Shown: one piece after another, positions 4,602 to 52,033 of the stretch
Layout of the letters: every line of letters starts with the position of its first letter
Numbering within the stretch: the first letter of the stretch is position 1
DNA from: a virus
Direction: 5' to 3' (one strand)
Virus genome (UHGV): UHGV-1366919
DNA length: 64,000 nucleotides
The notes under the pieces: generated by a model
Database searches by the model: none
Told to the model about the DNA's origin: nothing
Seen by the model: only the letters and a program-made list of their open reading frames with translations
Position numbers and translations under genes: made by a program

Positions 4602-4648
4602 AAAGATATTTATTAATACGCCAGACGGAATCCTAAATACAAAACATA

Positions 4649-6665: not shown

Positions 6666-7784
6666 TTATATTTGTAAGTGCTTAGAAATTAAATCTTTAA
6701 TTTGTTGATTGTTCTTTTTCCAATCATTTTCCCAAACTTCAATTAATTTGATACCATTTTCTTTACAAGCTTTTCGTTTATTCTTGTGATAACCTGGTTC
6801 TTTCTCTTCGTGAAATTGATGCCAATATTCACCATTATATTCAAAAGCTAATTTAAGTTCGGGAAGATAAATGTCCAATTCTTTTCCGCCAATAAATTTT
6901 CGAGTATTTTCTAAAATCTTGCCAGAATAAAGAGATTTAATATATTGGCAAAGCTCTTTTTCACCCTTAGAACGTTGTATCGCAATGGCACAATTAGGGC
7001 AACCTCTTCCGCTTAAATGAGCATAAGGAGCTTGTTTAAAAATATAATTACATTTATTACATTTAATTATAATTTTCTTATGAGAATGATTATAAGCAGA
7101 TAACGAATAATCATACCTATCTTTATCATGTACTTTTTCAGCTTTTTTAATAAAAGCTTGTAAAGTAGATATACGATTTAAATTTCGACATTTAATGCAT
7201 CCAACACCTTTAAGATGCTGTTTAGGTGTTTGTTTAAAAATATGGCCGCACTTATTACATTTAATAGTAACTTTTATAAGATAACCCTTATAAAGGGTTG
7301 AAGAATAATCAAATCGATTTTTTCCATGAATTTCTTCTGCCTTTTTAATAAATTCATCTATTGATAAATGCTGACGTTCCTTTCCACATTCTGGACAACC
7401 TGCACCGTTTAAATGATTTCCAGCTTTTTGCTCAAATATACTATCATGATAAAGACATTTGATTTTAACATTAGTATCATTATTAATATAGTTGACAAAA
7501 GAATAATCATAAATTCCTTTGCCATGAACAGATTCAGCTTTTTGTATAAATTCTTGAAGAGTTAATCTCGATTTTTCTGCATTTTTTGTTACTGCACATT
7601 TTGGACAGCCATGTCCATACCAATGCATATATGCAGCTTGTTCAAAGGTATGACCACATTTATTACATTTTATTATAAGCTTGGCTTTAGAACCCTGGTA
7701 AACTGATAGAGAATAGTCATACCTATCAGGACCATGCTTTTTTATGGCTTTTTCAATAAACTTTTCAGTTGTAAACTTTACCAT
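6666..7784 (-). CDS. free-standing homing-endonuclease-like protein (paralog 1)
   Basis: 372 aa. About five repeats of the unit FI.KA..HG.KYDYS...Y.N....I.C..HG.F.Q....HL.G.GC..C. C-terminal ELDIYLPELKLAFEYNGEYWH...GIKLIEVW module. Confidence 0.65.
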   Translation of the reverse strand: MVKFTTEKFIEKAIKKHGPDRYDYSLSVYQGSKAKLIIKCNKCGHTFEQAAYMHWYGHGCPKCAVTKNAEKSRLTLQEFIQKAESVHGKGIYDYSFVNYINNDTNVKIKCLYHDSIFEQKAGNHLNGAGCPECGKERQHLSIDEFIKKAEEIHGKNRFDYSSTLYKGYLIKVTIKCNKCGHIFKQTPKQHLKGVGCIKCRNLNRISTLQAFIKKAEKVHDKDRYDYSLSAYNHSHKKIIIKCNKCNYIFKQAPYAHLSGRGCPNCAIAIQRSKGEKELCQYIKSLYSGKILENTRKFIGGKELDIYLPELKLAFEYNGEYWHQFHEEKEPGYHKNKRKACKENGIKLIEVWENDWKKNNQQIKDLISKHLQI

Positions 7785-11395: not shown

Positions 11396-12301
11396 CTATA
11401 ATTTTTCTCTAATTTTCTGGAGGTGTTCAGATATTTCTTTTTTAATGGTTTCTGCATTAGTTTTCCATTGGCTGTCCCAAACTTCAATTAAAGTGATTCC
11501 GGCATCTTTACAAAGTTGCCTTTTATTTTCATGATAGCCAGGTTCTTTTTCTTCATGTATTTTATGCCAGTATTCGCCATTATATTCAAGGGCAAGTTTT
11601 AATTCAGGAAGATAAATATCCAATTCTTTTCGACCAATAAATTTTCTTGTATTTTCGAGAATTTCTCCAGGATAAATTGATTTGATAAAATCGCATAACT
11701 CCTTTTCACCCTTAGATTTCTTTTCATGAAGGGCACATTTTAAACATCCCCGCCCAGTTAAGTGATTATACGCCATTTGAGCAAATTTACCATGGACAGG
11801 ACAAATAATAATCACATTTGTTTCTGCATTAATATAAATTGTTTTCGAATAATCGAATTTATGTCCATGCACTTTTTGAGCACGGTTAATAAATTCTTTT
11901 GTGGTTAAACGCTCCAATCCTACGCAACTTTTGCATCCATGCCCCCTTAAATGATTGATGGGATATTGCTGAAAAGGTCCATGAACAGGGCAAATAATAG
12001 GTACTTTTGCATGATTATTTTTATAGTTTACTTTAGAATAATCATATTTGTTCCCATGAACCTCTCTTGCTTTCTTTATAAACTTCTCAGTCGTTAAAGA
12101 TTTTGCATCAACTGCACATTTAAAACATCCCTGACCTCGTAAATGGGCTCCGGCTCTTTGTTGGAAAGGTCCATGAACCGGGCAAATAACAGTTATAGAA
12201 CTATAAGCATTTTTATAATTTACTTCAGAATAATCAAAAAAGTCTCCATGTATTTTTCTAGCCCTGTCAATAAAAATTTCAGTGGTTATTCTGTTGGGCA
12301 T
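11396..12301 (-). CDS. free-standing homing-endonuclease-like protein (paralog 2)
   Basis: 301 aa. Four zinc-ribbon-like repeats (CPVHGPF.Q...HLRG.GC..C) and the C-terminal ELDIYLPELKLALEYNGEYWH module. Inserted between rIIA and GroEL. Confidence 0.65.
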   Translation of the reverse strand: MPNRITTEIFIDRARKIHGDFFDYSEVNYKNAYSSITVICPVHGPFQQRAGAHLRGQGCFKCAVDAKSLTTEKFIKKAREVHGNKYDYSKVNYKNNHAKVPIICPVHGPFQQYPINHLRGHGCKSCVGLERLTTKEFINRAQKVHGHKFDYSKTIYINAETNVIIICPVHGKFAQMAYNHLTGRGCLKCALHEKKSKGEKELCDFIKSIYPGEILENTRKFIGRKELDIYLPELKLALEYNGEYWHKIHEEKEPGYHENKRQLCKDAGITLIEVWDSQWKTNAETIKKEISEHLQKIREKL

Positions 12302-12376: not shown

Positions 12377-13981
12377 TCACTTTTCAGATTGTTCATCAAC
12401 CAAAAATGTTTCTGTTGTTAGAATCAAACCTGCCGATGCAGCGGCGTTTTCAATTGCGCAACGACATACACTAAATGGATCAATAATTCCCGCTTCTAAC
12501 ATGTCTACTAACTTTTGCGTCTTAATATCAAACCCAATACTGCCTTTAGCTTTTGCGACCTTTTCGATGATAACATCCGGCCGTTCAACTCCGGCATTCT
12601 CAAGAAGAGTCTTAAGAGGAATGTCAAGAACCTTTCGCATCAGGTTAATACCAGCATTAAAAGATTCATCCCCTGTTTCAAACTTAATAGACTTATTCTC
12701 TTTAATCTTAGCAAGAACAGATCCTCCCCCTGGAATAACTCCGGATCGTAAAGCTGCTTGACAGGCACATACCGCATCATCTACCCGGTCCTTAATTTCA
12801 TTTAATTCAGATTCAGAATTACCTCCGATATTAAGAACACATACTCCTTGGGCAAGCTTGGCAATTCGCTTATTAAGCACATCTTCTTCCCATGTGCCGG
12901 GACTGCAATTATCTCGTTCCTCCTTAAGCAAATCAATATGTTCTTTAAGCCTTTGAGGATTTCCTCCGCCTTTTAAGAAAGTTGTATATCGTTTATCACA
13001 AACAATCTTTTCACAGGTGGCAAAATCTTCCTCTCTAATAGAATTAAAATCACGTGAAAGAAGTTCAGTAAAATATGTACCTCCTAAAGTAATTTCAAGA
13101 TCTTCCATTTCCCTCTTCATGCCGTCTCCATATCCTGGACACTTAATGGCACAAATGTTAATAATGCCTTTAATCTTATTAATGACAAGAGTTTGAAGAA
13201 CTTCGGATTCAATATCCGGAGCGATAATAAACAAAGGCCTTCCGCGAAGTTCTTTAGTATTAAAGACTTTCTGAAGAATAGGCATAATTTGCTGATTATT
13301 TGTCAATTTAATTCCAGATAAAAGAATTAAGGGATTTTCAAGAATACATTCTTGTTTAGTCGTATTATTGACAAAATAAGAACTCATCCAGCCTCGAGGA
13401 ACTCGTAAACCTGCAATAAACTGAGAAGAAGATTCATTGCTCCTGCTGTCATTAATAGTAATGGAACCATCCAAACCTACTTTTTCAACAGCTTCAGAAA
13501 CAAGATGTGCAATTTCTTTATCCCAGTTGGTAGAAACTAAAGCAATTTGGTGAATCTGTTCTGGAGAACATTCCTGCTTAATATTTTCTTTAATATAGTT
13601 GGCAATTGTCTTTGCCGCTGAAATAACTCCGCGTTGAATTGAAATCGGATTATAACCTGTTTCAATCAGCTTCATGCCTTCAGATGCAATAGCCTCAGTG
13701 AGGATTGCGCTGGTACTGGTCCCATCACCAGCCTGGTGCGCTGATTGCTCGGATGCTTGACGAATAATATCTGCACCCATTTTTTCAAGTACATCAGGCG
13801 GATTTACATGGCGAGCTACTGTAACGCCGTCTTTTGTAATATATGTCGCATTACCCATTCGATATATTACATTTCTACCGCCAGGCCCGAGCGTCGAAGA
13901 AACTGCATTAGCAAGTTTCTTTACACCATTAAGCAGTTTCTTCCTGCCTTCATTTCCCATATAAATGTTTTGTTGAATCAT
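12377..13981 (-). CDS. groEL: phage-encoded GroEL-family (Hsp60) chaperonin
   Basis: 534 aa. TLGPGGRNVI, ITKDGVTVAR, AGDGTSTSAILTEAI and VIPGGGSVLAK match GroEL TLGPKGRNVV, ITKDGVSVAR, AGDGTTTATVLAQAI and VVAGGGVALIR. No C-terminal GGM tail. Confidence 0.9.
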   Translation of the reverse strand: MIQQNIYMGNEGRKKLLNGVKKLANAVSSTLGPGGRNVIYRMGNATYITKDGVTVARHVNPPDVLEKMGADIIRQASEQSAHQAGDGTSTSAILTEAIASEGMKLIETGYNPISIQRGVISAAKTIANYIKENIKQECSPEQIHQIALVSTNWDKEIAHLVSEAVEKVGLDGSITINDSRSNESSSQFIAGLRVPRGWMSSYFVNNTTKQECILENPLILLSGIKLTNNQQIMPILQKVFNTKELRGRPLFIIAPDIESEVLQTLVINKIKGIINICAIKCPGYGDGMKREMEDLEITLGGTYFTELLSRDFNSIREEDFATCEKIVCDKRYTTFLKGGGNPQRLKEHIDLLKEERDNCSPGTWEEDVLNKRIAKLAQGVCVLNIGGNSESELNEIKDRVDDAVCACQAALRSGVIPGGGSVLAKIKENKSIKFETGDESFNAGINLMRKVLDIPLKTLLENAGVERPDVIIEKVAKAKGSIGFDIKTQKLVDMLEAGIIDPFSVCRCAIENAAASAGLILTTETFLVDEQSEK

Positions 13982-14003
13982 GATTTACAATTATTATAGC
14001 ATG
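13978..14003. repeat. copy B of imperfect 26-bp direct repeat flanking the HEG at 13978..15069
   Basis: tcatgatttacaattattatagcatg. 21/26 identical to 15066..15091 tcacgatttttaatcattatagcacg. Both copies contain TGcTATAAT and end at a start codon (GroEL ATG / HEG GTG). Confidence 0.6.
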
Positions 14004-15069
14004 TTTCTTTGATAAACTTTTTTAATTTTTCCTTATTCTTTCGCCACTGAGTATCTAAAATTTCTATTAATTTTATACCTTTTTTCTCACAATCTTTTTT
14101 CTTTTGAACATGATAGCCTGGATATTTTTCTTCCTTTAACTTATGATGGTAATCACCGTTGTATTCAAAGGCTAGATTTAATTCAGGAAGATAAACATCA
14201 AGTTCTTTTTTTCCAATAATATCTCTTGGGTTTTCTTGAACCTCGCCTGGATAAATTGATTTAATATATTGACAAAGTTCTATTTCACCTTTAGATCTTT
14301 TTGATGCCGCTAAGCATTTAGGGCAACCGCTTCCGCGTAGATGCGTATTGGGCAACTGTAAAAATGGGCCATGTTTTTTACAAGTTATAATAATTTTTGT
14401 TTTTGCATTTTTATAAGCTACCAAAGAATAATCATACTTGTCTCCGTGAGTAGCTCTAGCTTTTTCTATAAATGCTTCAATAGTTCTCTTATTATTTCCG
14501 GCACAAAATGGGCAGCCGGAGCCTGAAAAATGCTTATCAGGGCGTTGTTCAAAAACTCCATGTATGGGACATATAATTTTTACTTTTGTTCTTTTATTTT
14601 TATAAATTACTAAAGAATAATCATATTTGGTTCCATGAACTTCAATAAATCTTTTTCTAATCTCTTCCTCAGTTAAAAACTGATTTTTAATTGCACATTT
14701 TTTACATCCTTTTCCTATTAAATGGCTTGATGGATCTTGCTTAAGAGTACAACCACATTTATTACATTTTATGATTACCTCGGTTGTTGAATTTATATAA
14801 TCAACTAAAGAATAATCATATCGGCCTTTCCCATGAATTTCTTCAGCTTTTTCTATAAATTCTTCTGTAGTCCTGTTAAATCCTTTACATTTAGGACAAC
14901 CATGGCCCATTAAATGAATGTTGGGAATTTGCTCAAAGTAGCCATGTATGGGACAAAATATTTTAATTAATGTTTTTGTGTTAAAATATACAACTTCAGA
15001 ATAACCATACTTATTGCCATGTATTTCAATAGCTTTTTTAATAAACTCTTTAGTTGTTAATCTTTTCAC
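13978..15069 (-). CDS. free-standing homing-endonuclease-like protein (paralog 3), GTG start, overlaps GroEL start codon
   Basis: 363 aa. Five repeat units and the C-terminal ELDVYLPELNLAFEYNGDYHH module. Its 3' end overlaps the GroEL ATG (ATGA overlap). Confidence 0.65.
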   Translation of the reverse strand: MKRLTTKEFIKKAIEIHGNKYGYSEVVYFNTKTLIKIFCPIHGYFEQIPNIHLMGHGCPKCKGFNRTTEEFIEKAEEIHGKGRYDYSLVDYINSTTEVIIKCNKCGCTLKQDPSSHLIGKGCKKCAIKNQFLTEEEIRKRFIEVHGTKYDYSLVIYKNKRTKVKIICPIHGVFEQRPDKHFSGSGCPFCAGNNKRTIEAFIEKARATHGDKYDYSLVAYKNAKTKIIITCKKHGPFLQLPNTHLRGSGCPKCLAASKRSKGEIELCQYIKSIYPGEVQENPRDIIGKKELDVYLPELNLAFEYNGDYHHKLKEEKYPGYHVQKKKDCEKKGIKLIEILDTQWRKNKEKLKKFIKETCYNNCKS

Positions 15070-32464: not shown

Positions 32465-33994
32465 ATGAACCTTTCTTTATTGACAGTATTATGTCATGGC
32501 AAAAATAATAGCCAACTTAAAGAATTATTAAAAAATAATAAAATATTAAATTTTATTAATACTTTTATTAAAGATAAACCTTATTATGAAACACCCTTTA
32601 GATTTTTAAAATTGTTGAGTAAAAATGCAACATTACCTGCCTGTATTATATGTGGAAATATTATTTCTTATAGTATTTGGAATAGACGTAATAATGCTAA
32701 ATTTTGTTCTAAAACTTGCAAATATTCTAAAGAAGGTAAAGAAAATACTAGAAAAAATATTGAAAAAACATTAATTGAAAAATATAAGGTTAAAAATATT
32801 TTACAACATAAAAAGTTTAAAGAAAAACAAGAATTAACTTGTTTAGCAAAATACGGAACTAAATTTTATTCAAAAACTTCAGAATGTAAAGAAAAAGTTA
32901 AGAAGACGTCATTAGAAAAATTTGGTACAAATAATGTGATGTTCAATAAAAAGGTTTTAAAAAATATAAAAAATAATAATTTATTAAAATTTGGGGTTGA
33001 ATGGCCTTTATCAGATAAAACTATTCATAAAAAAACTATGAATAGTCTTGTTAAAAAACATTTAGAAAAGCTTAAAAAGTTTAATTTAACTTTGTTAGAT
33101 GAATATCAATCCACAAAAGAATACTATAATTTTAAATGTGCTACATGTGGTAATACATTTAAAGATCATTTAAAAAATGGTAGAATTCCTATATGCAAAC
33201 ATTGCTTTCCTTCTAATACTTCTATTGGGGAAAAAGAATTATCAAACTTTATTAAACAATTTTCTTCTAATATTAGCTTAAATGATAGAACATTAATAAA
33301 TCCTTTAGAATTAGATATTGTTATTCCAGAAAAACATTTAGCAATAGAATTTAATGGGCTATATTGGCATTCTGAAGAACATGGTAAAAATGAAAATTAT
33401 CATATTAATAAATCATTATTATGTAAATCTAAAAACTTTAATTTAATTCATATATTTGAAGATGAATGGCTTTTTCAAAAAAATATAATAAAAGGTATTA
33501 TAAAAGATTATTTTAATAGCAAAAAAATAAAAACAAATTTTATTACATTTAAAAAAATCGATAATAAATTAGCTAAAAAATTTAATGAAAAATATAATAT
33601 TCTTGGACATATTACTACAAAAAATAATTTTGGACTTTTTTATAAAAATAGATTAATACATGTATTATCTGTTGGAAAACCAAGATTTAATAAAATTTAC
33701 AAATATGAAATTTATCGATTATCCTCAACATTTAATTTTAAAATTGAAAATTATTTTAAAGTTTTAATTGATAATTTACCTTTATCAATTAAAGAATCAT
33801 TAATATTTTATGAAAATAAACGTTTTCCTATTATTAATAAAACATTATTAGATAATTTGATATTTTTATCAAATTCTAAGCCAAGCTATTTTTTTGTCAA
33901 AAATAAAAATAGATATTCAAAATATAATAAAATAAATAGATTTGATTATAAAATTTGGGATTGCGGATCAACACTTTATCAGGTTAAATATTAA
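32465..33994 (+). CDS. divergent homing-endonuclease-like protein (paralog 6) with C-terminal extension
   Basis: 509 aa. Cys-pair zinc-ribbon repeats. Shares GEKELSNFIKQF...ELDIVIPEKHLAIEFNGLYWH...FNLIHIFEDEW with the other paralogs. Confidence 0.5.
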   Translation: MNLSLLTVLCHGKNNSQLKELLKNNKILNFINTFIKDKPYYETPFRFLKLLSKNATLPACIICGNIISYSIWNRRNNAKFCSKTCKYSKEGKENTRKNIEKTLIEKYKVKNILQHKKFKEKQELTCLAKYGTKFYSKTSECKEKVKKTSLEKFGTNNVMFNKKVLKNIKNNNLLKFGVEWPLSDKTIHKKTMNSLVKKHLEKLKKFNLTLLDEYQSTKEYYNFKCATCGNTFKDHLKNGRIPICKHCFPSNTSIGEKELSNFIKQFSSNISLNDRTLINPLELDIVIPEKHLAIEFNGLYWHSEEHGKNENYHINKSLLCKSKNFNLIHIFEDEWLFQKNIIKGIIKDYFNSKKIKTNFITFKKIDNKLAKKFNEKYNILGHITTKNNFGLFYKNRLIHVLSVGKPRFNKIYKYEIYRLSSTFNFKIENYFKVLIDNLPLSIKESLIFYENKRFPIINKTLLDNLIFLSNSKPSYFFVKNKNRYSKYNKINRFDYKIWDCGSTLYQVKY

Positions 33995-43501: not shown

Positions 43502-43506
43502 AATTA

Positions 43507-43541
43507 AAAAAGCTGAATCAAATTAATGATTCAGCTTTTTT
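43507..43541 (+). terminator. intrinsic terminator (member of a three-copy hairpin family)
   Basis: aaaagctgaatca...tgattcagctttttt. Embedded in the 3' end of the convergent HEG ORF. Confidence 0.5.
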
Positions 43542-44618
43542 AATCTCTTCTTGAATTAAAAGTTTTATTTGATCTTTATTTTTCTTCCATTTACTTTCCC
43601 AAATTTCTATCAATGTAATTCCCCTTTCAATACATTGATTTCTTTTATTTTCATGATAACCCAGATTTCGATCTTCGTGTAATTTATGCCAGTAATCTCC
43701 ATTATATTCAAAGGCTAATTTTAATTCGGGGAGATAAATATCAAGCTCTAATTGATTATCAAGTTGATTTCTAGAATTTTTTATAATTTTTCTTGAATAT
43801 ATCGAATTAATATATTCAAAAAGTTCTTTTTCACCTTTAGATCTTTTCGAAGCTTTTACACATTTAATACAGCCACTTCCATTTAAATGAATATATGCTC
43901 TTTGTCGAAAGACACCATGCCTTGGACAAATAATATTCACATAATCACGAGCACTTTTATAGATAACTAAGGAATAATTATATTTGTCTCCATGAACTTC
44001 TTGAGCTCTTTTAATAAATTCTTCAGTTGTTAAAAATTGCTTTTCTCTTTTACATTCTGGACATTCATTGCCTTGTAAATGTGACCCTGCATGTTGTCGA
44101 AATAATCCATGCTTAGGACATATTATTGTTATATGATTTTTTACGCCATTATAAATCACTTTAGAATAATCATAATAATTTCCATGCACTTTTTTAGCTT
44201 TTTCAATAAATTCTTCTCTTGATAAAAGATCTTTTATTTTAGCACAATAAGGACACCCACTTCCATTTAAATGGCTGCCAGCCATTTGTTCAAATTTATG
44301 CCCGCATTTATTACAAATAATCCAAATTTTTGATTTACAATTTACGTATATCGATATTGAATAATTATACTTATCACCATGAACTTTTCTTGCTTTTTCT
44401 ATAAATTTTTCTGTTGTTAACTGTGCCGTGGGAATACATTTAGGACATCCACATCCTCTTAAATGTTCTGATGCTTTTTGCCAAAAATATCCATGCTCAG
44501 GACAACCAATTTCTATTTTTGCAAGACTACTTTTATATTCAACTCTTGAATAATCATATTTGTCACCATGTATTTCTTTAGCCCTTTGTATAAATTCTTC
44601 AGTTGTTAGCTTTTTCAT
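43518..44618 (-). CDS. free-standing homing-endonuclease-like protein (paralog 4)
   Basis: 366 aa. Five repeat units (CPEHGYFWQ...HLRGCGCPKC etc.). C-terminal ELDIYLPELKLAFEYNGDYWH...GITLIEIW module. Confidence 0.65.
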   Translation of the reverse strand: MKKLTTEEFIQRAKEIHGDKYDYSRVEYKSSLAKIEIGCPEHGYFWQKASEHLRGCGCPKCIPTAQLTTEKFIEKARKVHGDKYNYSISIYVNCKSKIWIICNKCGHKFEQMAGSHLNGSGCPYCAKIKDLLSREEFIEKAKKVHGNYYDYSKVIYNGVKNHITIICPKHGLFRQHAGSHLQGNECPECKREKQFLTTEEFIKRAQEVHGDKYNYSLVIYKSARDYVNIICPRHGVFRQRAYIHLNGSGCIKCVKASKRSKGEKELFEYINSIYSRKIIKNSRNQLDNQLELDIYLPELKLAFEYNGDYWHKLHEDRNLGYHENKRNQCIERGITLIEIWESKWKKNKDQIKLLIQEEIKKAESLI

Positions 44619-44725
44619 AACTAAACTTTAATTTTATATAATAATTCTCAATTTTATTTGGTACTAAATTAATAGTAAGTGTATTAATGATTTTTATACA
44701 ATCTATACGCTAATAAATAATTACT

Positions 44726-45220
44726 ATGAAAAAGTTTAAAGTAAAAGAACTTAGATTTTCTAATTTACTCGTTGAAGATATAAATGTTCCCAAAAATCTT
44801 ATTGTTCGAATTAAGAATATTCCTAGATCTAAAAAGGCTTTACTTGAAGAAGTTGCTAAGAAAATTAGCGAAAAATATGGAAAAGATGTTAAACACTTTA
44901 TTCTTGAAGATTTAGAAATAGAAGGGCCAAAGAATTTTGCTAAAAATCCTACTATTACAAAGCGTCTTCAAAAACGTCGAAAAGTTTTGAAAAACTATAT
45001 TGATGAAATAGGTGAAGAAGATAGTCAATTAAGTTATGAAGTTACAAAAGCTATTATAAATGTTTTTGGTGAAAAATTTTTAGACAAATATAGTGTTAAT
45101 ATTCGCGATCAAATTGAAAAATTTAGTAAAAAATTGCGGGTCTTAAAACACTTGCTGATAGGCCAAAAGATGATCCTTATAAAAAGCGGTTGGATAACTG
45201 GAGGATTGGTTAACCTTTAA
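44726..45220 (+). CDS. hypothetical protein
   Basis: 164 aa, lysine-rich. Confidence 0.4.
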   Translation: MKKFKVKELRFSNLLVEDINVPKNLIVRIKNIPRSKKALLEEVAKKISEKYGKDVKHFILEDLEIEGPKNFAKNPTITKRLQKRRKVLKNYIDEIGEEDSQLSYEVTKAIINVFGEKFLDKYSVNIRDQIEKFSKKLRVLKHLLIGQKMILIKSGWITGGLVNL

Positions 45221-45221
45221 A

Positions 45222-45260
45222 AGAAAAAGCTAAGTCATTGATCTGACTTAGCTTTTTCTT
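45222..45260 (+). terminator. intrinsic terminator (hairpin family member)
   Basis: aaagctaagtca...tgacttagctttttc. Confidence 0.55.
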
Positions 45261-45289
45261 TAAATTCTTCTAATGTTAATTTTCTCATA

Positions 45290-45358: not shown

Positions 45359-48205
45359 TTAAGCGCTAAATTCTGTTGAAATCACGCCAGATCTAGAAGC
45401 GGTCAAGTCAATGAGAATGCGTTCTGCACTACGCGTTGGAGCTGCATATGTTGAGATACGCATTACACCGGCATCGATCTCAGTTTCCGTATTATTCCTT
45501 TCATCGCAAACAAGAACATAAGAATAGATTGCTCGTTGTTCTTGTAGTGCATCAAATGCTGGAGTTAACACATTTGTTACATTCAAACGGGTGTACAAAG
45601 TATTACCTTCAAACAGCCATTGCTTGGCAGTATCACGCAACAGTTTAAGAATGTAAAGCATTGTTCTTCGGGCAGAAATTTGATCTAACGCTGAGTCGCG
45701 CTTTATCATAGTTCTAATTCCGTACAACATTGTTCCGGAAGAAGGAGATACGATAATCGGATTAAGAGAAATACGATATAAATCATCTCGTTGCTTTTGC
45801 TGAGTGGAGAAGGAAATATCAAGCACAGAACTTAGTACACCATTATTCATTCCAGCGGCGGCTTGCCATGGACCATATAAGGCATCCGTAGCAGCAATCT
45901 TTTGAGCGACAAATCCAGAAGCAGGAGCCCAGAATTGAGTACTGTTTACAGGATCTTGTACCTTTAAGAAATACGGATAAACAGCCATATAAGAGGAAGC
46001 TAATCCATCATATAAATGCCTGTTAGGCCAGTAGATTGAAGTCGAGAAAGAATGCTTAACATTATCCAGAGCAGTATAAGCTGCATTGACTAAGGGCATT
46101 CCAAATTGTTTTTCAATCTTATTATCCTTGCCTTCAACGGAAATTTGACGAATTGTATCACCAATGAAGAATACATCGCCTCGTCCGCCTTCTTGCTGAG
46201 CAGAAGCTAATTTTAAGAAAGCCGATTGAATAGCTCGATGATTAGCGATTACTTGTTCAGCTGTGGAAGATAATGTAGACTTACCAGTACGCATATCCGT
46301 TACACCTTGAATAACTTTGGTATCATCGAATAATGCAGCTTCTGGATCATAGCCATTCGGATATTGCTCCTTAACTTTATCTTGTTCAGTTGTTTGGCCA
46401 TCCCCACGCTCGGTATCAGCCCTAATTGCAGCCTGGAGCTTTTCTTCATAGCTTTGATAAGCCACATCCATAGCTCCGACATAGATAGTTCCCATACCGC
46501 CTTCCAACAGAAGGTCAACGTCATAGAGTTCTTCATTTTCGACTAATTCAAGGGCAGCCTCGATTTTCTTGGGAAGATTACCAATGATTTTAGAAGCATT
46601 ATTGGAACGGGCATATAAACCTAACGGATACATGGAATCACCCATTTCAAAGGTCGGATAATCAGTTGGAATACTTTGAAGAACAGCCTTTGAAATACCG
46701 GCCGGAGAAGCCATGATGTCTTCGATGGAACCCGCCATTTCATCATCAGTCAATGCAATGTCAAGCAATTGCTGGGCATAAATACGAACCTTAATCTTCG
46801 GAGAACCGTCAACATATAGTCCGCGAGAATTTAACGCTCCTGAGAAGTTCGGATTAACAAACATGCGAACTAAAGTATCATTAGCCGTTGTATTCTCAAT
46901 AAAGAAGTTAACTGCAGATGTAGTATACTTGGAAGTAGTCTGTCGTCCATATTCTAAGGAAGCATTATATCCTTGAGTAATCAGGGCAGAAAGTTTAAGA
47001 GCATCTCCAGAATTAGTAGCCTGGCGAACCTTAAAGACGCCTACATTTAATGTATCATTCCATTGAGCTCCGGAAATATCAAAATCAGTGATGGATTCTT
47101 CCATAACCTGAGAGATACATCCTTTCAACGGAGAAGAAAGCTTAAAGTCAAGGCGTTCATTAGGAACAGTCGTATACTGAAGACCCGTAAGACCTTCTTC
47201 AATAGAAGCAGGAAGCTGAGTTACAGTCTTAAGCTTGCGCACGGCCGCATAAGAAGTACCAGGATCAGAGAAAGCATTATCGGATAACGCAAGATAAAAA
47301 CCTTCAAAAAGATCATTTGTTACCGTCTTGCCAAAGTTAAGAGCTAAGAAAGCAAACTGCCCCAAATCGGCAAGCTGAGTAGAAATAGTTTGAGGAATTG
47401 CATCGGACCAGTTAAATTCTCCAGAACCATCCAAAGCTTGTCCATTTAAAAATCGATAATACTGTTCAATAGAAATATTAAACTGAACAGGTTCACCGAT
47501 TAAAAATGTAGCGGAATCTTCATATTCACCTTTGATACCGGCGGAACCATCTGAATAATTCGTAATAGGCTTAAAGGAATTATTAGCAGATTGAACATAA
47601 TAAGTTGCAAAGACAGCATTCTGAGTTGGAACATCTGTTACCTCAGTATATTCAGATCCATTCTTAGTATAGATCGTAACCTTATTGGTGAAATTAGTTA
47701 ACGGAGTTCCGGCCTGGTCCGTATAATATTGAACCTGCACTTTAGCAGCAATATCAGGAGAAACAGGAGTATAAGAAGTAGAACGGGTTACCTTGGTATA
47801 AAGCTGAACAGATGTATCAATACGTTGTTCAGGGGTAGCTTCATTATAAACTTCTTCAGAATCAATAGCATATCCAAGAGCCGGATAAGCAAGAATAGAA
47901 ACGGAAGCAGATTTAGTATCTCCTAAGTCTACACCATAAGGAAGTCGGGAAACACTTACATAAGCAGCAGAATTTAATGCTGCGTCTACTGTTGCATAAG
48001 AATAGCGCTCAGAACTTGTAACAGGTTCTCCGAATATTTCAACATATTCACTGATTGTCGAAACAGAAGTAACTTCAGAAGTAGGTCCTTGTTGGCTGAA
48101 AATTGGTATAAAGACCGACGTTCCGGCAGACTGCGCCGCTCGTGTCGATTGGTCGCGTTCCAAAATTTCGACGCCCGGGCTGATAATTGTGGGTGTAATT
48201 GCCAT
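45359..48205 (-). CDS. tail sheath protein (gp18-like), unusually long
   Basis: N-terminus MAITPTIISPGVEILERDQS matches T4 gp18 MTLLSPGIELKETTVQS. C-terminus ...YSYVLVCDERNNTETEID...RISTYAAPTRSAERILIDLTASRSG matches EYRVVCDTTNNTPSVID...TFYIQPARSINYITLNFVATATG. Confidence 0.85.
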   Translation of the reverse strand: MAITPTIISPGVEILERDQSTRAAQSAGTSVFIPIFSQQGPTSEVTSVSTISEYVEIFGEPVTSSERYSYATVDAALNSAAYVSVSRLPYGVDLGDTKSASVSILAYPALGYAIDSEEVYNEATPEQRIDTSVQLYTKVTRSTSYTPVSPDIAAKVQVQYYTDQAGTPLTNFTNKVTIYTKNGSEYTEVTDVPTQNAVFATYYVQSANNSFKPITNYSDGSAGIKGEYEDSATFLIGEPVQFNISIEQYYRFLNGQALDGSGEFNWSDAIPQTISTQLADLGQFAFLALNFGKTVTNDLFEGFYLALSDNAFSDPGTSYAAVRKLKTVTQLPASIEEGLTGLQYTTVPNERLDFKLSSPLKGCISQVMEESITDFDISGAQWNDTLNVGVFKVRQATNSGDALKLSALITQGYNASLEYGRQTTSKYTTSAVNFFIENTTANDTLVRMFVNPNFSGALNSRGLYVDGSPKIKVRIYAQQLLDIALTDDEMAGSIEDIMASPAGISKAVLQSIPTDYPTFEMGDSMYPLGLYARSNNASKIIGNLPKKIEAALELVENEELYDVDLLLEGGMGTIYVGAMDVAYQSYEEKLQAAIRADTERGDGQTTEQDKVKEQYPNGYDPEAALFDDTKVIQGVTDMRTGKSTLSSTAEQVIANHRAIQSAFLKLASAQQEGGRGDVFFIGDTIRQISVEGKDNKIEKQFGMPLVNAAYTALDNVKHSFSTSIYWPNRHLYDGLASSYMAVYPYFLKVQDPVNSTQFWAPASGFVAQKIAATDALYGPWQAAAGMNNGVLSSVLDISFSTQQKQRDDLYRISLNPIIVSPSSGTMLYGIRTMIKRDSALDQISARRTMLYILKLLRDTAKQWLFEGNTLYTRLNVTNVLTPAFDALQEQRAIYSYVLVCDERNNTETEIDAGVMRISTYAAPTRSAERILIDLTASRSGVISTEFSA

Positions 48206-48320
48206 AATATATTTTTAAGTTAAATTATTAAATCTTAGAAAGTTTAACAAAAGATATTTACATTTATAACGGCTAGTTCAGGTTCTATTTTACTTCTTGG
48301 ATAAATAAACACTCTTCAAT

Positions 48321-48349
48321 TTAGCACCAAAATAAAATCAGGATAAAAT
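48321..48349. repeat. 29-bp perfect direct repeat, copy 1 (5' of HEG 48362..49711)
   Basis: ttagcaccaaaataaaatcaggataaaat, identical to 49686..49714. Confidence 0.8.
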
Positions 48350-48361
48350 AATATCCAATTT

Positions 48362-49711
48362 ATGGCAATTAAACGACTTACGACAGAAATTTTTATAGAA
48401 AGGGCCAAAGCAAAACACGGTATAGACAGGTATGATTACTCGGCAACCAATTATACCCATTGTAATAATAAAATTATAATCAAGTGTTTAATACATAATT
48501 TAATATTTGAAACCTACCCCCATAATCATTTAAGAGGGAATGGAGGTTGCCCTCTATGTGCTAAAGAAGGACGATCTTTATCATGGCAATCTTTTTTAGA
48601 AAAAAGCATCGAAGCTCACGGGCAAAATCGATATGATTATTCATATGCTAAAAAAGAGTATAAAGGAACCAAATCAAAAATTACAATAATATGTAAAAAA
48701 TGTGGACATAGATTTGTTCAATTACCTTCTAATCATATAAAAGGCCATGGTTGTATAAATTGTGTAAATTTAGCTAAATCATTTGATAAAAATTTCTTTA
48801 TTAAAGAGGCAGAAAAGAAACATGGTATTGGGAGATATGATTACTCAAAAATAAAATATAAAAATTCATATACTCCCATTTATATTATTTGTAATAAATG
48901 TAATAAAAAATTTTATCAGCAGCCACGAATACATTTAAAAGGAATTGGATGTTCTCATTGTTATTATAAAAGTAAAACATTAACTAAGGAAGAATTTATT
49001 AAAAGAGCTGAAGAAATACATGAAAAAGGAAAATATGATTATTCTAATGTAGAATATATACAGTCTAACATTAAGATTAAAATTAAATGTAATAAATGTA
49101 ATAATATTTTTTGGCAATATCCCCATGAACATTTAAAAGCCAAAGGATGCCGAATTTGTGCAATTAAAGATATTACTGATACAAAAGAAACATTTATTAA
49201 AAAGGCAAAGAAAGTTCATAAGGATTTTTATGATTATTCAAGTATAAAATATATAAATTCTCAAACTTTAATTTATATTAATTGTCCAAAACATGGTTTT
49301 TTCGCACAACGGCCAAATGCTCATCTAAGAGGTCATGGATGTCCGAATTGTGCACTCGCTGCACAAAGATCTCGAGGAGAAATAGAACTTGGAGAATTTA
49401 TTAAATCAATTTATTCCAATAAAATTTTAAAAAATTCTAAAACACAACTTGGAAATAAAATGGAATTGGATATATATCTTCCTGAATTAAAACTCGCCAT
49501 TGAGTATAATGGCGATTATTGGCATAATTTGAAAGAGGCCAAACATCCTGGCTGCCATGAAGATAAAAGAAACCGATGTAAAGAAAGAGGAATTAAACTT
49601 ATTGAAGTTTTAGATACGGAATGGCAAAAGAATAAAGATCAAATTAAAGAATCTCTTAAAAAACAAATTGGAGAACTTATCAAAATTAGCACCAAAATAA
49701 AATCAGGATAA
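48362..49711 (+). CDS. free-standing homing-endonuclease-like protein (paralog 5) inserted between tail sheath and tail tube genes
   Basis: 449 aa. Six repeat units. C-terminal ELDIYLPELKLAIEYNGDYWH...GIKLIEVLDTEW module. Its last 8 codons (ISTKIKSG) are encoded by the flanking repeat. Confidence 0.7.
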   Translation: MAIKRLTTEIFIERAKAKHGIDRYDYSATNYTHCNNKIIIKCLIHNLIFETYPHNHLRGNGGCPLCAKEGRSLSWQSFLEKSIEAHGQNRYDYSYAKKEYKGTKSKITIICKKCGHRFVQLPSNHIKGHGCINCVNLAKSFDKNFFIKEAEKKHGIGRYDYSKIKYKNSYTPIYIICNKCNKKFYQQPRIHLKGIGCSHCYYKSKTLTKEEFIKRAEEIHEKGKYDYSNVEYIQSNIKIKIKCNKCNNIFWQYPHEHLKAKGCRICAIKDITDTKETFIKKAKKVHKDFYDYSSIKYINSQTLIYINCPKHGFFAQRPNAHLRGHGCPNCALAAQRSRGEIELGEFIKSIYSNKILKNSKTQLGNKMELDIYLPELKLAIEYNGDYWHNLKEAKHPGCHEDKRNRCKERGIKLIEVLDTEWQKNKDQIKESLKKQIGELIKISTKIKSG

Positions 49712-49714
49712 AAT
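49686..49714. repeat. 29-bp perfect direct repeat, copy 2 (3' end of HEG ORF)
   Basis: See 48321..48349. Confidence 0.8.
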
Positions 49715-49779
49715 GAATATATTTTAAAAAGTTAAAAACATACTTAACTAAGTGCGCAATATATATATATATTAATACT

Positions 49780-51243
49780 ATGAGTAATATTACTGAAGAA
49801 CAAAAAGCTGAATTCCTGAAATATTATCCCGACCATGAAGATAAGCTAGAAGAAATTATCGAATACAATTGTTTATCTTCCTGCGAAGATGATCGTATAT
49901 TTTGTTTTTATGATGTTAAATTTGATCCGAATAAGTCAACACTAGAAAAGGTTGATTATTTGAATCCAATGGGAATATATAGCAATTTAGTCTGTTATAT
50001 TGAACGAGGAGATATGAGGAGATCTGATAACTCTATCATCTCTTCTATTGAAGAATTAGTAAAAACTATTAAAGAATTTCCTTATGTTATTTTTGATGCA
50101 AATACTGCAGTTATTAAAATTCAAGGAGTTATAGAAAATAGTGAAGATCCTGACCTTAGCGGAATTAAAATTAACATTTATAAATTTGATAAAAAGAAAA
50201 ATAAATTTATTAATGAACAAGCTGGATTTCATTCTTACCATCATGAATTAAATGATTTTATTGAATTCATTTATCAATTTGTAAATGATGCAATAAAAGA
50301 ATATGTTAGAGTTAGAGGTAAAGACGGTAATAATTATTTCATGCTTCATCCTAATGTCTATAAGAATAATGAAGAAAAACCTGAAAGCAATAATTCAAAA
50401 TCTCTTAAATCTATTATAGACGAATGGAAACAGAAGGTTGATAAAGATCTCGTTATGATTGGAGGCGATCTAAGATTTAAGGATGAAATTAAAAATAAAA
50501 TTGAGGAAGATAAATTATACCTTGAACGTCTTATTGCAGAAGCTGACCAGCAAAGGGAAGTAATAGAGGAAAATCCTGACAATGATATTGAAGAAAAAAT
50601 AAATCAAGCTATTATTAATGCTCGTAAGGAGCCTCCTGTTGATCTACCGGAAGAACTTCAAGAAGAGCTTATTGAAAGCATGAAAGATTATAACGATTAT
50701 TTTCATAATCCAAATAATAAGCTTCGAGGAGAATATTTTGATGATTTAATCGAACAGCTTAATAATTCTAAAAAGAACTGCTGTTTAATGAAACTTAATA
50801 AAGATACTGCTACTTGGCTTACCGTTACTGATTTCTTTGAAGAACAAGAAGATACGCTTTTAAGCAAGCTTCTTGAATTTGATCCGGTCATTGAAAAACA
50901 TGATGAAAATTATACGTTAATCAAATTTAAACGAGAAGTATTTGACCAGAATAAAGAAAAGATTGAGAAGATTCAACATCAGTATTTTGCCAGGGCTAAT
51001 TCTTTTACTGATTTTGATTTTGACCTTGATTTTAAAATAGTTAGTTTAACCAAAGATGAACATAACTTTATCGTTAGTAATTTAAAGAAACATGCAATTA
51101 TTTCCTCAAATGCAGAACCTGAATTTAAAGGATTTTTCAGGAATATTGTTCAGTATGCTCCTGAATTAGAAAATGAAGATATTGAATATATCTTTGAGAT
51201 AACTGATAAATGTTTGCCAACATCTGTTAAAAATAGACTTTAA
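49780..51243 (+). CDS. acidic hypothetical protein
   Basis: 487 aa, E/D/K-rich, no recognisable motif. Confidence 0.4.
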   Translation: MSNITEEQKAEFLKYYPDHEDKLEEIIEYNCLSSCEDDRIFCFYDVKFDPNKSTLEKVDYLNPMGIYSNLVCYIERGDMRRSDNSIISSIEELVKTIKEFPYVIFDANTAVIKIQGVIENSEDPDLSGIKINIYKFDKKKNKFINEQAGFHSYHHELNDFIEFIYQFVNDAIKEYVRVRGKDGNNYFMLHPNVYKNNEEKPESNNSKSLKSIIDEWKQKVDKDLVMIGGDLRFKDEIKNKIEEDKLYLERLIAEADQQREVIEENPDNDIEEKINQAIINARKEPPVDLPEELQEELIESMKDYNDYFHNPNNKLRGEYFDDLIEQLNNSKKNCCLMKLNKDTATWLTVTDFFEEQEDTLLSKLLEFDPVIEKHDENYTLIKFKREVFDQNKEKIEKIQHQYFARANSFTDFDFDLDFKIVSLTKDEHNFIVSNLKKHAIISSNAEPEFKGFFRNIVQYAPELENEDIEYIFEITDKCLPTSVKNRL

Positions 51244-51368
51244 AAATATGATTAGTAAGAAATTACCACCTCTTTGGAAGCAACAACTCGTCTGGTGCTT
51301 ATGTAAACTATTGAATATAAATTTTCGAATTTATCCAAATCGGCCCAAAGATGAAAAAGTTGATTAAT

Positions 51369-51408
51369 AAAAAAGCTGAGTCATTAATTTGACTCAGCTT
51401 TTTCTTTT
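51369..51408 (+). terminator. intrinsic terminator (hairpin family member)
   Basis: aaaagctgagtca...tgactcagctttttc. Confidence 0.55.
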
Positions 51409-51430: not shown

Positions 51431-51997
51431 TTATTGAGCTACAGCAACATTAGATATTCCGTCACTTGTATCATAGTACACATAGGCAAAAGTAACGTCG
51501 CAAGTTACTAGCGCACCGCTCCCATCCTCATAGTTAAATGTGATTGGATTAACATTTCTTATGGAAGCATGACGCAAATTATATGTTACTAAAGGATTAA
51601 GTTTTGAGTCAATTGTACTTATCGACACGTATTGATCTGCGCTTGGAAATCTATAATCACCGGTAGATGTTGTATCATTGAAAGTGATTCGAGAAGCCCG
51701 TTCTAATTTCTGGCGCGCTGTTCCTTCGGCATCCATAAAAAATTTAATCGTATATTCAGAGCTGCCGGTATATTTTACCGAGCCTGGATAATGTACTTCA
51801 AGCCCCATGTATTGTTGCGTTTGATTTACAATTTGACGGGCTGGAAGTTGAGTCGCAGTACAATAAATTATTTCATCACTAGTCAAAGCCAAAGCATCAG
51901 TATTAACGGCTACAAGACGAAAATTAAAGTCTCGTAAGAACTGGCGTTTTTGAGCTTGGGAAATGAAATCACGAATTCCTGGGATATTTCCGTTCAT
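51431..51997 (-). CDS. probable tail tube protein
   Basis: 188 aa. Size and position next to the sheath gene. Beta-rich composition typical of tube proteins. No strong motif, so positional inference. Confidence 0.45.
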   Translation of the reverse strand: MNGNIPGIRDFISQAQKRQFLRDFNFRLVAVNTDALALTSDEIIYCTATQLPARQIVNQTQQYMGLEVHYPGSVKYTGSSEYTIKFFMDAEGTARQKLERASRITFNDTTSTGDYRFPSADQYVSISTIDSKLNPLVTYNLRHASIRNVNPITFNYEDGSGALVTCDVTFAYVYYDTSDGISNVAVAQ

Positions 51998-52033
51998 ATA
52001 TCTCTATTTAGATCAACTAAATATTAAAACATA

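Follow-up and report, generated by a model that had tools for sequence, protein, structure and literature searches.

The 64-kb stretch of DNA analysed here (the window; virus genome UHGV-1366919) comes from an uncultured T4-like phage (~200 kb, 31% GC), very common in metagenomes of the human gut. Beside its tail sheath gene the window carries an open reading frame (ORF) of 449 amino acids (aa), best called from its sequence a free-standing homing-endonuclease-like gene (HEG), which is enclosed by a perfect 29-bp direct repeat. Comparison with relatives of the phage supports an insertion of the HEG into the intergenic region between the sheath gene and a 487-aa ORF of no assigned function, probably into the leader of the latter and with duplication of some 29–40 nucleotides (nt) of that leader. 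An earlier note on this DNA had placed the HEG between the genes for tail sheath and tail tube; it is indeed intergenic and adjoins the sheath gene, but the 487-aa ORF on its other side separates it from the tube gene (Table 1). The sheath protein is only 28–31% identical to gp18 of T4 and cyanophages, over its C-terminal third.

The repeat unit, TTAGCACCAAAATAAAATCAGGATAAAAT, is found at exactly two sites in the window, both on the + strand, and allowing up to 3 mismatches reveals no third match there. A match was equally absent from 100 dinucleotide-preserving shuffles of the window; the repeat is exact and non-random. In the frame of the HEG, copy 2 reads TT AGC ACC AAA ATA AAA TCA GGA TAA AAT, and the two positions, the 12-nt gap between copy 1 and the HEG start codon and the coding content of copy 2 were all confirmed as the earlier note had described them. 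Beyond the 29-mer the similarity continues with one indel per side, to a total of ~40 nt. A generic multi-copy repeat, which the note had named as a threat to its interpretation, was rejected, because there are two copies in the window and two in a 107-kb IMG/VR contig, the exact 29-mer occurs in only three IMG/VR contigs, all at the sheath/487-aa locus, and GTDB genomes contain none. An assembly artefact was likewise rejected, since 26 contigs from different assemblers and samples carry the same two perfect copies. The 29-mer contains no stem-loop, neither copy has a terminator-like site, and RNA spanning either copy with its flanks folds no better than shuffled sequence (z −0.65 to +0.99); RNA structure in or around the repeat was dismissed, a 5-bp GGATA/TATCC hairpin beside the HEG start not being significant.

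Table 1. Features of the HEG locus (positions are those of the window; L007 is a HEG-less relative).
Feature	Position	Strand	Remarks
Paralogous HEG ‘site 1’, 366 aa	43518..44618	-	46% protein identity to the site-3 HEG (48362-49711)
Diverged third copy: left flank plus first 18 nt of the 29-mer (ATTAATACACTTACTATTAATTTAGTACC-AAATAAAAT)	44651..44688	-	upstream of the site-1 HEG
Tail sheath gene	45359..48205	-	divergent from the HEG
Left recombination boundary	48206..48440	+	intergenic plus first ~80 nt of the ORF (to RYDYS codons), near-identical between types A and B
TAAATA (within TATAAATGTAAATA)	48255..48260	-	candidate late promoter of the sheath gene; block ~98% conserved with L007
TAAATA (within GATAAATA)	48302..48307	+	13 nt upstream of copy 1, not duplicated; candidate T4-late-like core for the HEG/487-aa unit
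Extended imperfect repeat, copy 1	48316..48354	+	TCAA(T)-29mer-AATAT
Repeat copy 1	48321..48349	+	12 nt before the HEG ATG at 48362; joined to native left flank (L007 alignment)
HEG, type A allele, 449 aa	48362..49711	+	~5 DUF723/DUF4379 treble-clef zinc modules plus C-terminal Vsr/EDxHD-like PD-(D/E)XK nuclease domain
Right recombination boundary	49626..49779	+	last 86 nt of the ORF (from KNKDQIK codons) plus spacer to the 487-aa gene, identical between types A and B
Extended imperfect repeat, copy 2	49680..49720	+	TCAA(AA)-29mer-(G)AATAT
Repeat copy 2	49686..49714	+	encodes (I)STKIKSG plus the HEG TAA stop; joined to native leader of the 487-aa gene
487-aa ORF without assigned function	49780..51243	+	leader invaded by the HEG; L007 homologue 518 aa, 74-79% identical
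Tail tube gene	51431..51997	-	
Predicted excision/empty junction sequence			CTCTTCAATTTAGCACCAAAATAAAATCAGGATAAAATGAATATATTTTAAAAAG

The 449-aa protein matches DUF4379 (treble-clef zinc finger) in Pfam, precomputed annotations of identical proteins list DUF723, and PHROGs 559, 681 and 3339 (endonuclease/homing endonuclease) are matched with E values of 1e-22 to 1e-79. Its C-terminal domain has a Vsr-like PD-(D/E)XK fold, one of the recognised nuclease folds of homing endonucleases. In an alignment of 30 sequences D370, E381 and G384 are invariant and E340 nearly so; some of these residues may correspond to the E-D-x-H-D motif of I-Bth0305I. No transposase or integrase domain was detected in the protein and no terminal inverted repeats pair the two ends of the insert. 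The paralogues of the HEG stop 6–11 residues sooner than the 449-aa ORF, after a common KNKDQIK-type motif. L033, of the HEG-bearing relatives the most diverged, has a frameshift caused by a 1-nt difference ahead of copy 2, and its protein ends in ...ELINLAPK instead of ...ELIKISTKIKSG; the tail is therefore not conserved as protein. It appears to be accidental, with the ORF running into the duplicated leader until a stop codon is met.

The HEG-less site and the leader

Twenty-six independent metagenome contigs from close relatives span the whole site, and all of them carry a HEG there and two perfect 29-mers, at a spacing of 1365, 1149, 1148 or 954 nt. A HEG-less lineage is represented by L007, L008 and L009, which come from three samples and are identical across the site. 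Genome-wide, L007 is ~85% identical to the window in DNA (sheath protein 92.8%, tube protein 81%). Its sheath gene and its homologue of the 487-aa ORF are adjacent, with a spacer of 198 nt that is colinear with the left flank of the window, ~98% identical in its first 55 nt. The spacer continues with a single diverged homologue of the repeat (TTTGCACC TAATTTTT TCAAGGA AATTTATATATT), then with GAATATATT, which in the window follows copy 2, and finally with the conserved TTAACTAAGTGCGCAAT just before the start codon. Hence the left flank and the repeat start of copy 1 align with the HEG-less site, as does the right flank of copy 2, and the stretch homologous to the 29-mer is the least conserved part of the spacer. 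The HEG is thus present or absent at one and the same site, an intergenic leader that belongs to no intron or intein.

The earlier note had predicted a single 29-mer in relatives without the HEG, and L007–L009 do contain one homologue, diverged, with the copy-1 left flank on one side and the copy-2 right flank on the other; two copies occur in no HEG-less relative. The alignment of the L007 spacer also supports the note's proposal of an insertion with a short duplicated stretch, but puts it in the sheath/487-aa intergenic region, and the note's claim that the downstream gene retains its original leader is upheld. A closer HEG-less variant with the exact 29-mer was not found with a 27-nt anchor situated 62 nt from the repeat (three contigs in IMG/VR, eight in JGI/ENA metagenomes): every anchor-matched contig long enough to judge carries the HEG, and the same anchor had no match in GTDB genomes. 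When exact matches to the tube, sheath and 487-aa proteins were looked up, every context retrieved contained a HEG; in the collection searched, 654 blocks index the identical 487-aa protein and 2631 the identical tube protein. An excised single-copy form with the exact 29-mer was found neither in IMG/VR nor in JGI contigs. The contigs related to the window are all from human-gut metagenomes, and the INPHARED phage collection contains no DNA relative of it.

Distant relatives (tube protein 55–58% identical) were unusable as outgroups, as they have no sheath or 487-aa gene beside the tube gene. In four of these contigs (L040 and L042–L044) the tube gene adjoins homologues of the 273-aa and 160-aa genes of the window, and the block HEG/164-aa gene/sheath gene/HEG/487-aa gene is missing at the tube, which implies that the sheath region is rearranged or inserted relative to those phages. 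A different DUF723 HEG (483 aa) lies beside the tube gene of L040.

The core of T4 late-type promoters is TATAAATA, and the hexamer TAAATA is likely to be a late-promoter core related to this motif. It occurs 38 times in 128 kb (both strands), about five-fold below the ~200 of hexamers of the same composition, and 14 of the 38 lie on the coding strand within 3.56 kb of upstream intergenic DNA, mostly 5–25 nt before an ATG. At the HEG locus one TAAATA precedes copy 1, where L007 has the hexamer at the equivalent position, and another faces the sheath gene (Table 1); there is none near copy 2. As only copy 1 has a TAAATA ahead of it, the 29-mer is most likely leader and not promoter, probably the promoter-proximal mRNA leader of the 487-aa gene. 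We infer that this leader received the HEG, which is now transcribed together with the 487-aa gene. Further TAAATA sites are scattered through the window, e.g. at 4634, 28252, 31384, 39909, 44714 and 52018 on the + strand and at 52010, 36883 and 29460 on the − strand. The leader of the 487-aa gene also contains an (AT)n microsatellite (49762–49772) with at least five length variants among otherwise identical relatives, compared at the same place in L002, L014, L022 and L029.

Alleles of the occupied site

Two types of HEG interior occupy the site: type A, of 449 aa with five zinc modules, and type B, of 377 aa with four. The two proteins are 51% identical, no closer than any two paralogues, and yet the first ~80 nt and the last ~86 nt of the ORF are 95–100% identical between them. 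Shared ends around a divergent interior imply that the interior was replaced by recombination in motifs conserved among the paralogues (boundaries in Table 1); the crossovers lie inside the ORF, not at the repeats. A donor of either interior was not identified, the protein database holding no homologue above 51% identity besides the alleles of the site itself. Both types coexist in one JGI sample, type B on L002 (IMGVR_UViG_3300045988_182131) and type A on L027 (3300045988 Ga0495776_060507). A third allele, of 312 aa, is type B minus exactly one 65-aa module, and matches the kind of repeat-mediated deletion reported in modular phage HEGs (PMC10448857).

Types A and B each pair with a 487-aa or a 494-aa variant of the downstream gene. 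In some strains this gene is split by a frameshift into ORFs of 169 + 330 aa or 75 + 416 aa (L012:7529-8993, L013:5380-6844, L029:5751-7235), and the cluster of the 330-aa product has 51 member sequences. The 487/494-aa gene may be dispensable or phase-variable.

Origin of the duplication

Taken as a whole, the locus is probably best explained by duplicative insertion of the HEG into the leader of the 487-aa gene. In an ancestor of the phage lineage a promoter-less free-standing HEG would have entered this 5′ leader by illegitimate (non-homing) recombination, a few tens of nt downstream of the late-type TAAATA promoter directed away from the sheath gene. The event would have placed ~29–40 nt of leader on both sides of the insert; the junctions plausibly formed on different genome copies, or by template switching in recombination-dependent replication. 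The HEG would have become the first cistron of the transcript, starting 12 nt after leader copy 1, and its frame would leave HEG-derived sequence and stop in leader copy 2, the last ~8 residues being an accidental translation of intergenic DNA. From copy 2 onward the 487-aa gene would have kept its native leader. The site would then have stayed occupied, its interior being swapped for a different paralogue via crossovers in the RYDYS and KNKDQIK motifs and its zinc-module repeats recombining to alter the number of modules. We suggest that the 29-mers stayed identical through recency and occasional gene conversion, possibly also through constraint on the leader.

Several points weigh against this reconstruction. 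A single HEG-less lineage was found, ~15% diverged, and its version of the repeat is ~60–65% identical with indels, the alignment there resting on TTWGCACC, TCA(A)GGA and the flanks on either side. In principle, L007 might not preserve the pre-insertion state but have lost the HEG secondarily, via recombination between the copies. The homologue of the repeat at 44651–44688 is situated in DNA that L007 lacks, and copy 1 might thus be HEG-borne, not native. Finally, what we observe is the repeat, the empty site, the swap of alleles, the loss of one module and the nuclease fold; the TAAATA promoter, the assignment of the 29-mer as leader, the co-transcription, the duplication mechanism and the gene conversion we infer.

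Six ORFs of the window have a Vsr-like nuclease domain (6666–7784, 11396–12301, 13978–14910, 32465–33994, 43518–44618 and 48362–49711). Five of them have the zinc-ribbon/Vsr-like architecture and are mutually ~45–53% identical; the ORF at 32465–33994 shares only the nuclease domain (42% identity). None of the five paralogues of the HEG studied here has a repeat of >10 nt common to its start and stop regions. The flanking repeat is therefore a property of the insertion at 48362–49711 and not of the family, and we rejected the idea that the duplication is a regular product of the mobility mechanism of these elements.

We regard it as unlikely that the upstream element (the late promoter-like motif and the leader with the 29-mer) belongs to a mobile HEG cassette, in which case copy 2 would derive from a deleted second tandem HEG, or from the cassette recombining with a pre-existing similar element, and L007 would be a secondary loss. 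The proposal takes its strength from the diverged third copy, which lies upstream of the site-1 HEG inside a ~1.2-kb insert absent from L007. With a Smith–Waterman score of 35 this element ranks first among 65 unrelated upstream regions (next 27) and exceeds ~4000 random 110-nt windows (maximum 30); HEGs are, moreover, gained and lost at neighbouring sites, with a deletion scar at 45248–45289. However, the cassette would require several extra events (insertion, tandem duplication, precise deletion and loss in L007), (G)AATAT is all that the sequences following copies 1 and 2 have in common, nothing there resembling the start of a second HEG, and a tblastn search close to both copies detects no remains of a HEG. 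Upstream of the remaining four paralogues of the window the element is absent. The site-1 copy is closer to the version of the window than to that of L007, which would be expected had it been copied from site 3 within the lineage. We thus favour a history in which the site-1 HEG cassette picked up leader DNA of site 3 and carried it, because L007 has the element without the HEG, the site-1 copy resembles the window, and the alternative needs extra events and leaves no remnant. Copy 1 as the remnant of an older HEG 3′ end was rejected, given that tblastn detects no coding remnant and that L007 has the left flank as native intergenic DNA.

A further idea, to which we assign a rather low probability, is that the leader copies are no passive scar but a maintained pair, with gene conversion between them, precise excision that restores a cleavable empty site, and carriage of the leader with HEGs to new sites. 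The last is hinted at by the diverged copy upstream of 43518–44618. If true, the pair would be a HEG-specific analogue, in a very abundant human-gut phage, of the cassette shuffling mediated by PeSLs in T4-type phages (Arbiol et al., 2010, PMC2839356; Comeau et al., 2014, PMC4122927).

PeSL cassettes also give a precedent, that of promoter-containing repeats which shuffle genes, for a reading in which the 29-mer is a cis-element (a promoter of the arrangement TTAGCA-17-TAAAAT, or a leader or operator) needed by both ORFs, with two copies preserved by selection; such copies may in addition serve as PeSL-like recombination points for excision or exchange of the cassette. We find this reading doubtful. 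The boundaries of the repeat coincide exactly with the −35/17-nt/−10 arrangement and a related element is present upstream of another HEG. Furthermore, an alignment of L033 with L002 shows no difference in the 58 repeat positions, as against 6.8% of the 1841 positions aligned outside the repeats (P about 0.017), and in L033 the margins co-vary between the copies, with TCAAT before both and AACAT after both (in the window, AATAT after both). These data suggest that the copies occasionally convert one another, that the leader is somewhat constrained, or both, but the low conservation of the homologous stretch in the L007 spacer disfavours a strong constraint. As for the promoter, only 9 of 12 positions match, to a consensus that may not apply to a Bacteroidota-type host, and AT-rich DNA of this kind has many matches as good (18 in 1.8 kb against 11.3 ± 3.9 expected). 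A sigma-70 promoter in the 29-mer is therefore not favoured, and the duplication of promoter-proximal sequence proposed in the earlier note is probably not that of a promoter, the better candidate, TAAATA, not being duplicated. A Shine–Dalgarno-like tetramer at −20 to −4 precedes 1 of 61 ORFs (≥120 aa), compared with 8% of random positions. This near-absence of Shine–Dalgarno use fits, together with the 31% GC, a Bacteroidota-type host, as it suggests, and such hosts do not use TTGACA/TATAAT promoters. The TTTG/TAnnTTTG motifs of Bacteroidota were not enriched upstream of genes. The absence of a stem-loop or significant RNA structure, the limit of two full copies per genome, the position of the type A/B crossovers and the failure to find the excised single-copy form all count against this reading as well.

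The earlier note had proposed the 29-mer as a candidate target site for the endonuclease. It is highly improbable that the enzyme recognises or cuts this sequence: homing endonucleases usually cut near their insertion point and the single-copy site of HEG-less genomes does contain the repeat homologue, but both copies and their outer flanks are intact in 26 of 26 HEG-bearing contigs, so that a site within the 29-mer, or in the 29-mer plus one flank, would leave the HEG-bearing genome itself open to cleavage; L007, the one empty site known, departs from the 29-mer at about one-third of positions, and free-standing phage HEGs such as T4 Seg/Mob commonly cut inside a neighbouring conserved gene and not at the insertion point.

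Comparison with known systems and neighbouring elements

The seg and mob genes of T4 (‘intronless homing’) are free-standing HEGs found at sites among conserved genes, in several paralogues and with neighbouring promoters. The locus described here resembles them in that a nuclease ORF lies between conserved genes of a T4-like myovirus and is present or absent at the same site, that several paralogues occur per genome and that expression appears, as judged from the promoter motifs, to come from a neighbouring late-type promoter. To our knowledge, seg/mob insertions have not been described as bracketed by a long target duplication. Here, by contrast, the duplication comprises 29–40 nt of leader, with the end of the ORF in its second copy, and the nuclease is Vsr/EDxHD-like, not GIY-YIG or HNH.

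The nuclease domain shares its Vsr-like PD-(D/E)XK fold with I-Bth0305I and the EDxHD family (PMC3239194; PDB 3r3p). I-Bth0305I is, however, encoded in a group I intron, with relatives in inteins, whereas the HEG at 48362–49711 stands free between genes; the DNA-binding part of the latter is a DUF723/DUF4379 zinc-ribbon array. The modular zinc-finger (CapR/DUF723/DUF4397) HEGs of vibriophage ICP1 and other phages (PMC10448857) have in common with it the repeated zinc-finger DNA-binding modules, in-frame deletions by recombination between module repeats (here 377 aa to 312 aa) and a position at the boundaries of exchanged segments, but those of ICP1 carry T5orf172 nuclease domains instead of a Vsr-like domain. 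The term ‘direct repeat’ has no occurrence in Barth, Nguyen and Seed (2023, PMC10448857), and no HEG-flanking direct repeats are mentioned there.

In PeSL cassettes, too, regulatory-region repeats flank a dispensable ORF that can in principle be excised or exchanged by homologous recombination. PeSLs, however, comprise a strong sigma-70-like early promoter and a terminator stem-loop and are present in many copies per genome, while the 29-mer has no stem-loop, a weak promoter match and two full copies plus one diverged partial copy (44651–44688). Identity with a PeSL cassette was rejected for the missing stem-loop and the two full copies. A direct repeat of the target on both sides of an inserted gene is also reminiscent of transposon target-site duplications and of the att sites of integrases. 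A transposon-type duplication was rejected, as there is no transposase or integrase domain, no terminal inverted repeat and no flanking repeat at the paralogues.

The locus thus behaves like a T4-type free-standing seg/mob HEG that has a Vsr/EDxHD-like nuclease, a zinc-ribbon array and an unusual 29–40-nt duplicative footprint. It is a clean but fairly ordinary insertion footprint, a well-documented example and not a new principle, and current ideas about HEGs are not overturned by it. Homing accounts for the spread of HEGs between alleles, not for their first entry into a new site. At this locus the states before and after such a first entry can be compared in nature: the HEG would have entered an mRNA leader just below a late-type promoter, ~29–40 nt of target would have been duplicated, and the C-terminus of the ORF would have been built from target DNA. 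The later fate of the occupied site is visible as well, in 51%-identical paralogues with the same ends in otherwise near-identical genomes, in recombination of modules and in gain and loss of neighbouring HEGs. The zinc-ribbon/Vsr-like family is large (>1200 clusters in public data), and a defined empty site, that of L007 or a reconstructed single-copy site, can be used to study the specificity of these modular endonucleases.

Some observations concern the other HEGs of the window. Immediately before the ATG at 14910, HEG-module-like sequence (GNKYGYSEVVYFN) is still encoded, an indication that the HEG at 13978–14910 is disrupted or mis-started. A scar of HEG deletion lies between the sheath gene and the 164-aa gene (window 45217–45289; cf. 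L011:650-1900): a short ORF on the − strand, MRKLTLEEFKEKAKSDQ, followed by a stop codon, consists of the first ~11 HEG codons fused directly to a terminator hairpin at 45217–45264. L011, L007, L015 and L017 have an intact HEG of 366–491 aa at this position. The deletion seems to have joined N-terminal EEF(I/K)EKAK codons to similar C-terminal EEIKKAES codons. The hairpin is one of three near-identical bidirectional terminators (AAAAAGCTGAGTCA-loop-TGACTCAGCTTTTT), the others lying at 43503–43544 and 51364–51408. That at 43503–43544 encodes the C-terminal KKAESLI and stop of the 366-aa HEG; a second HEG paralogue therefore also ends inside a regulatory element.

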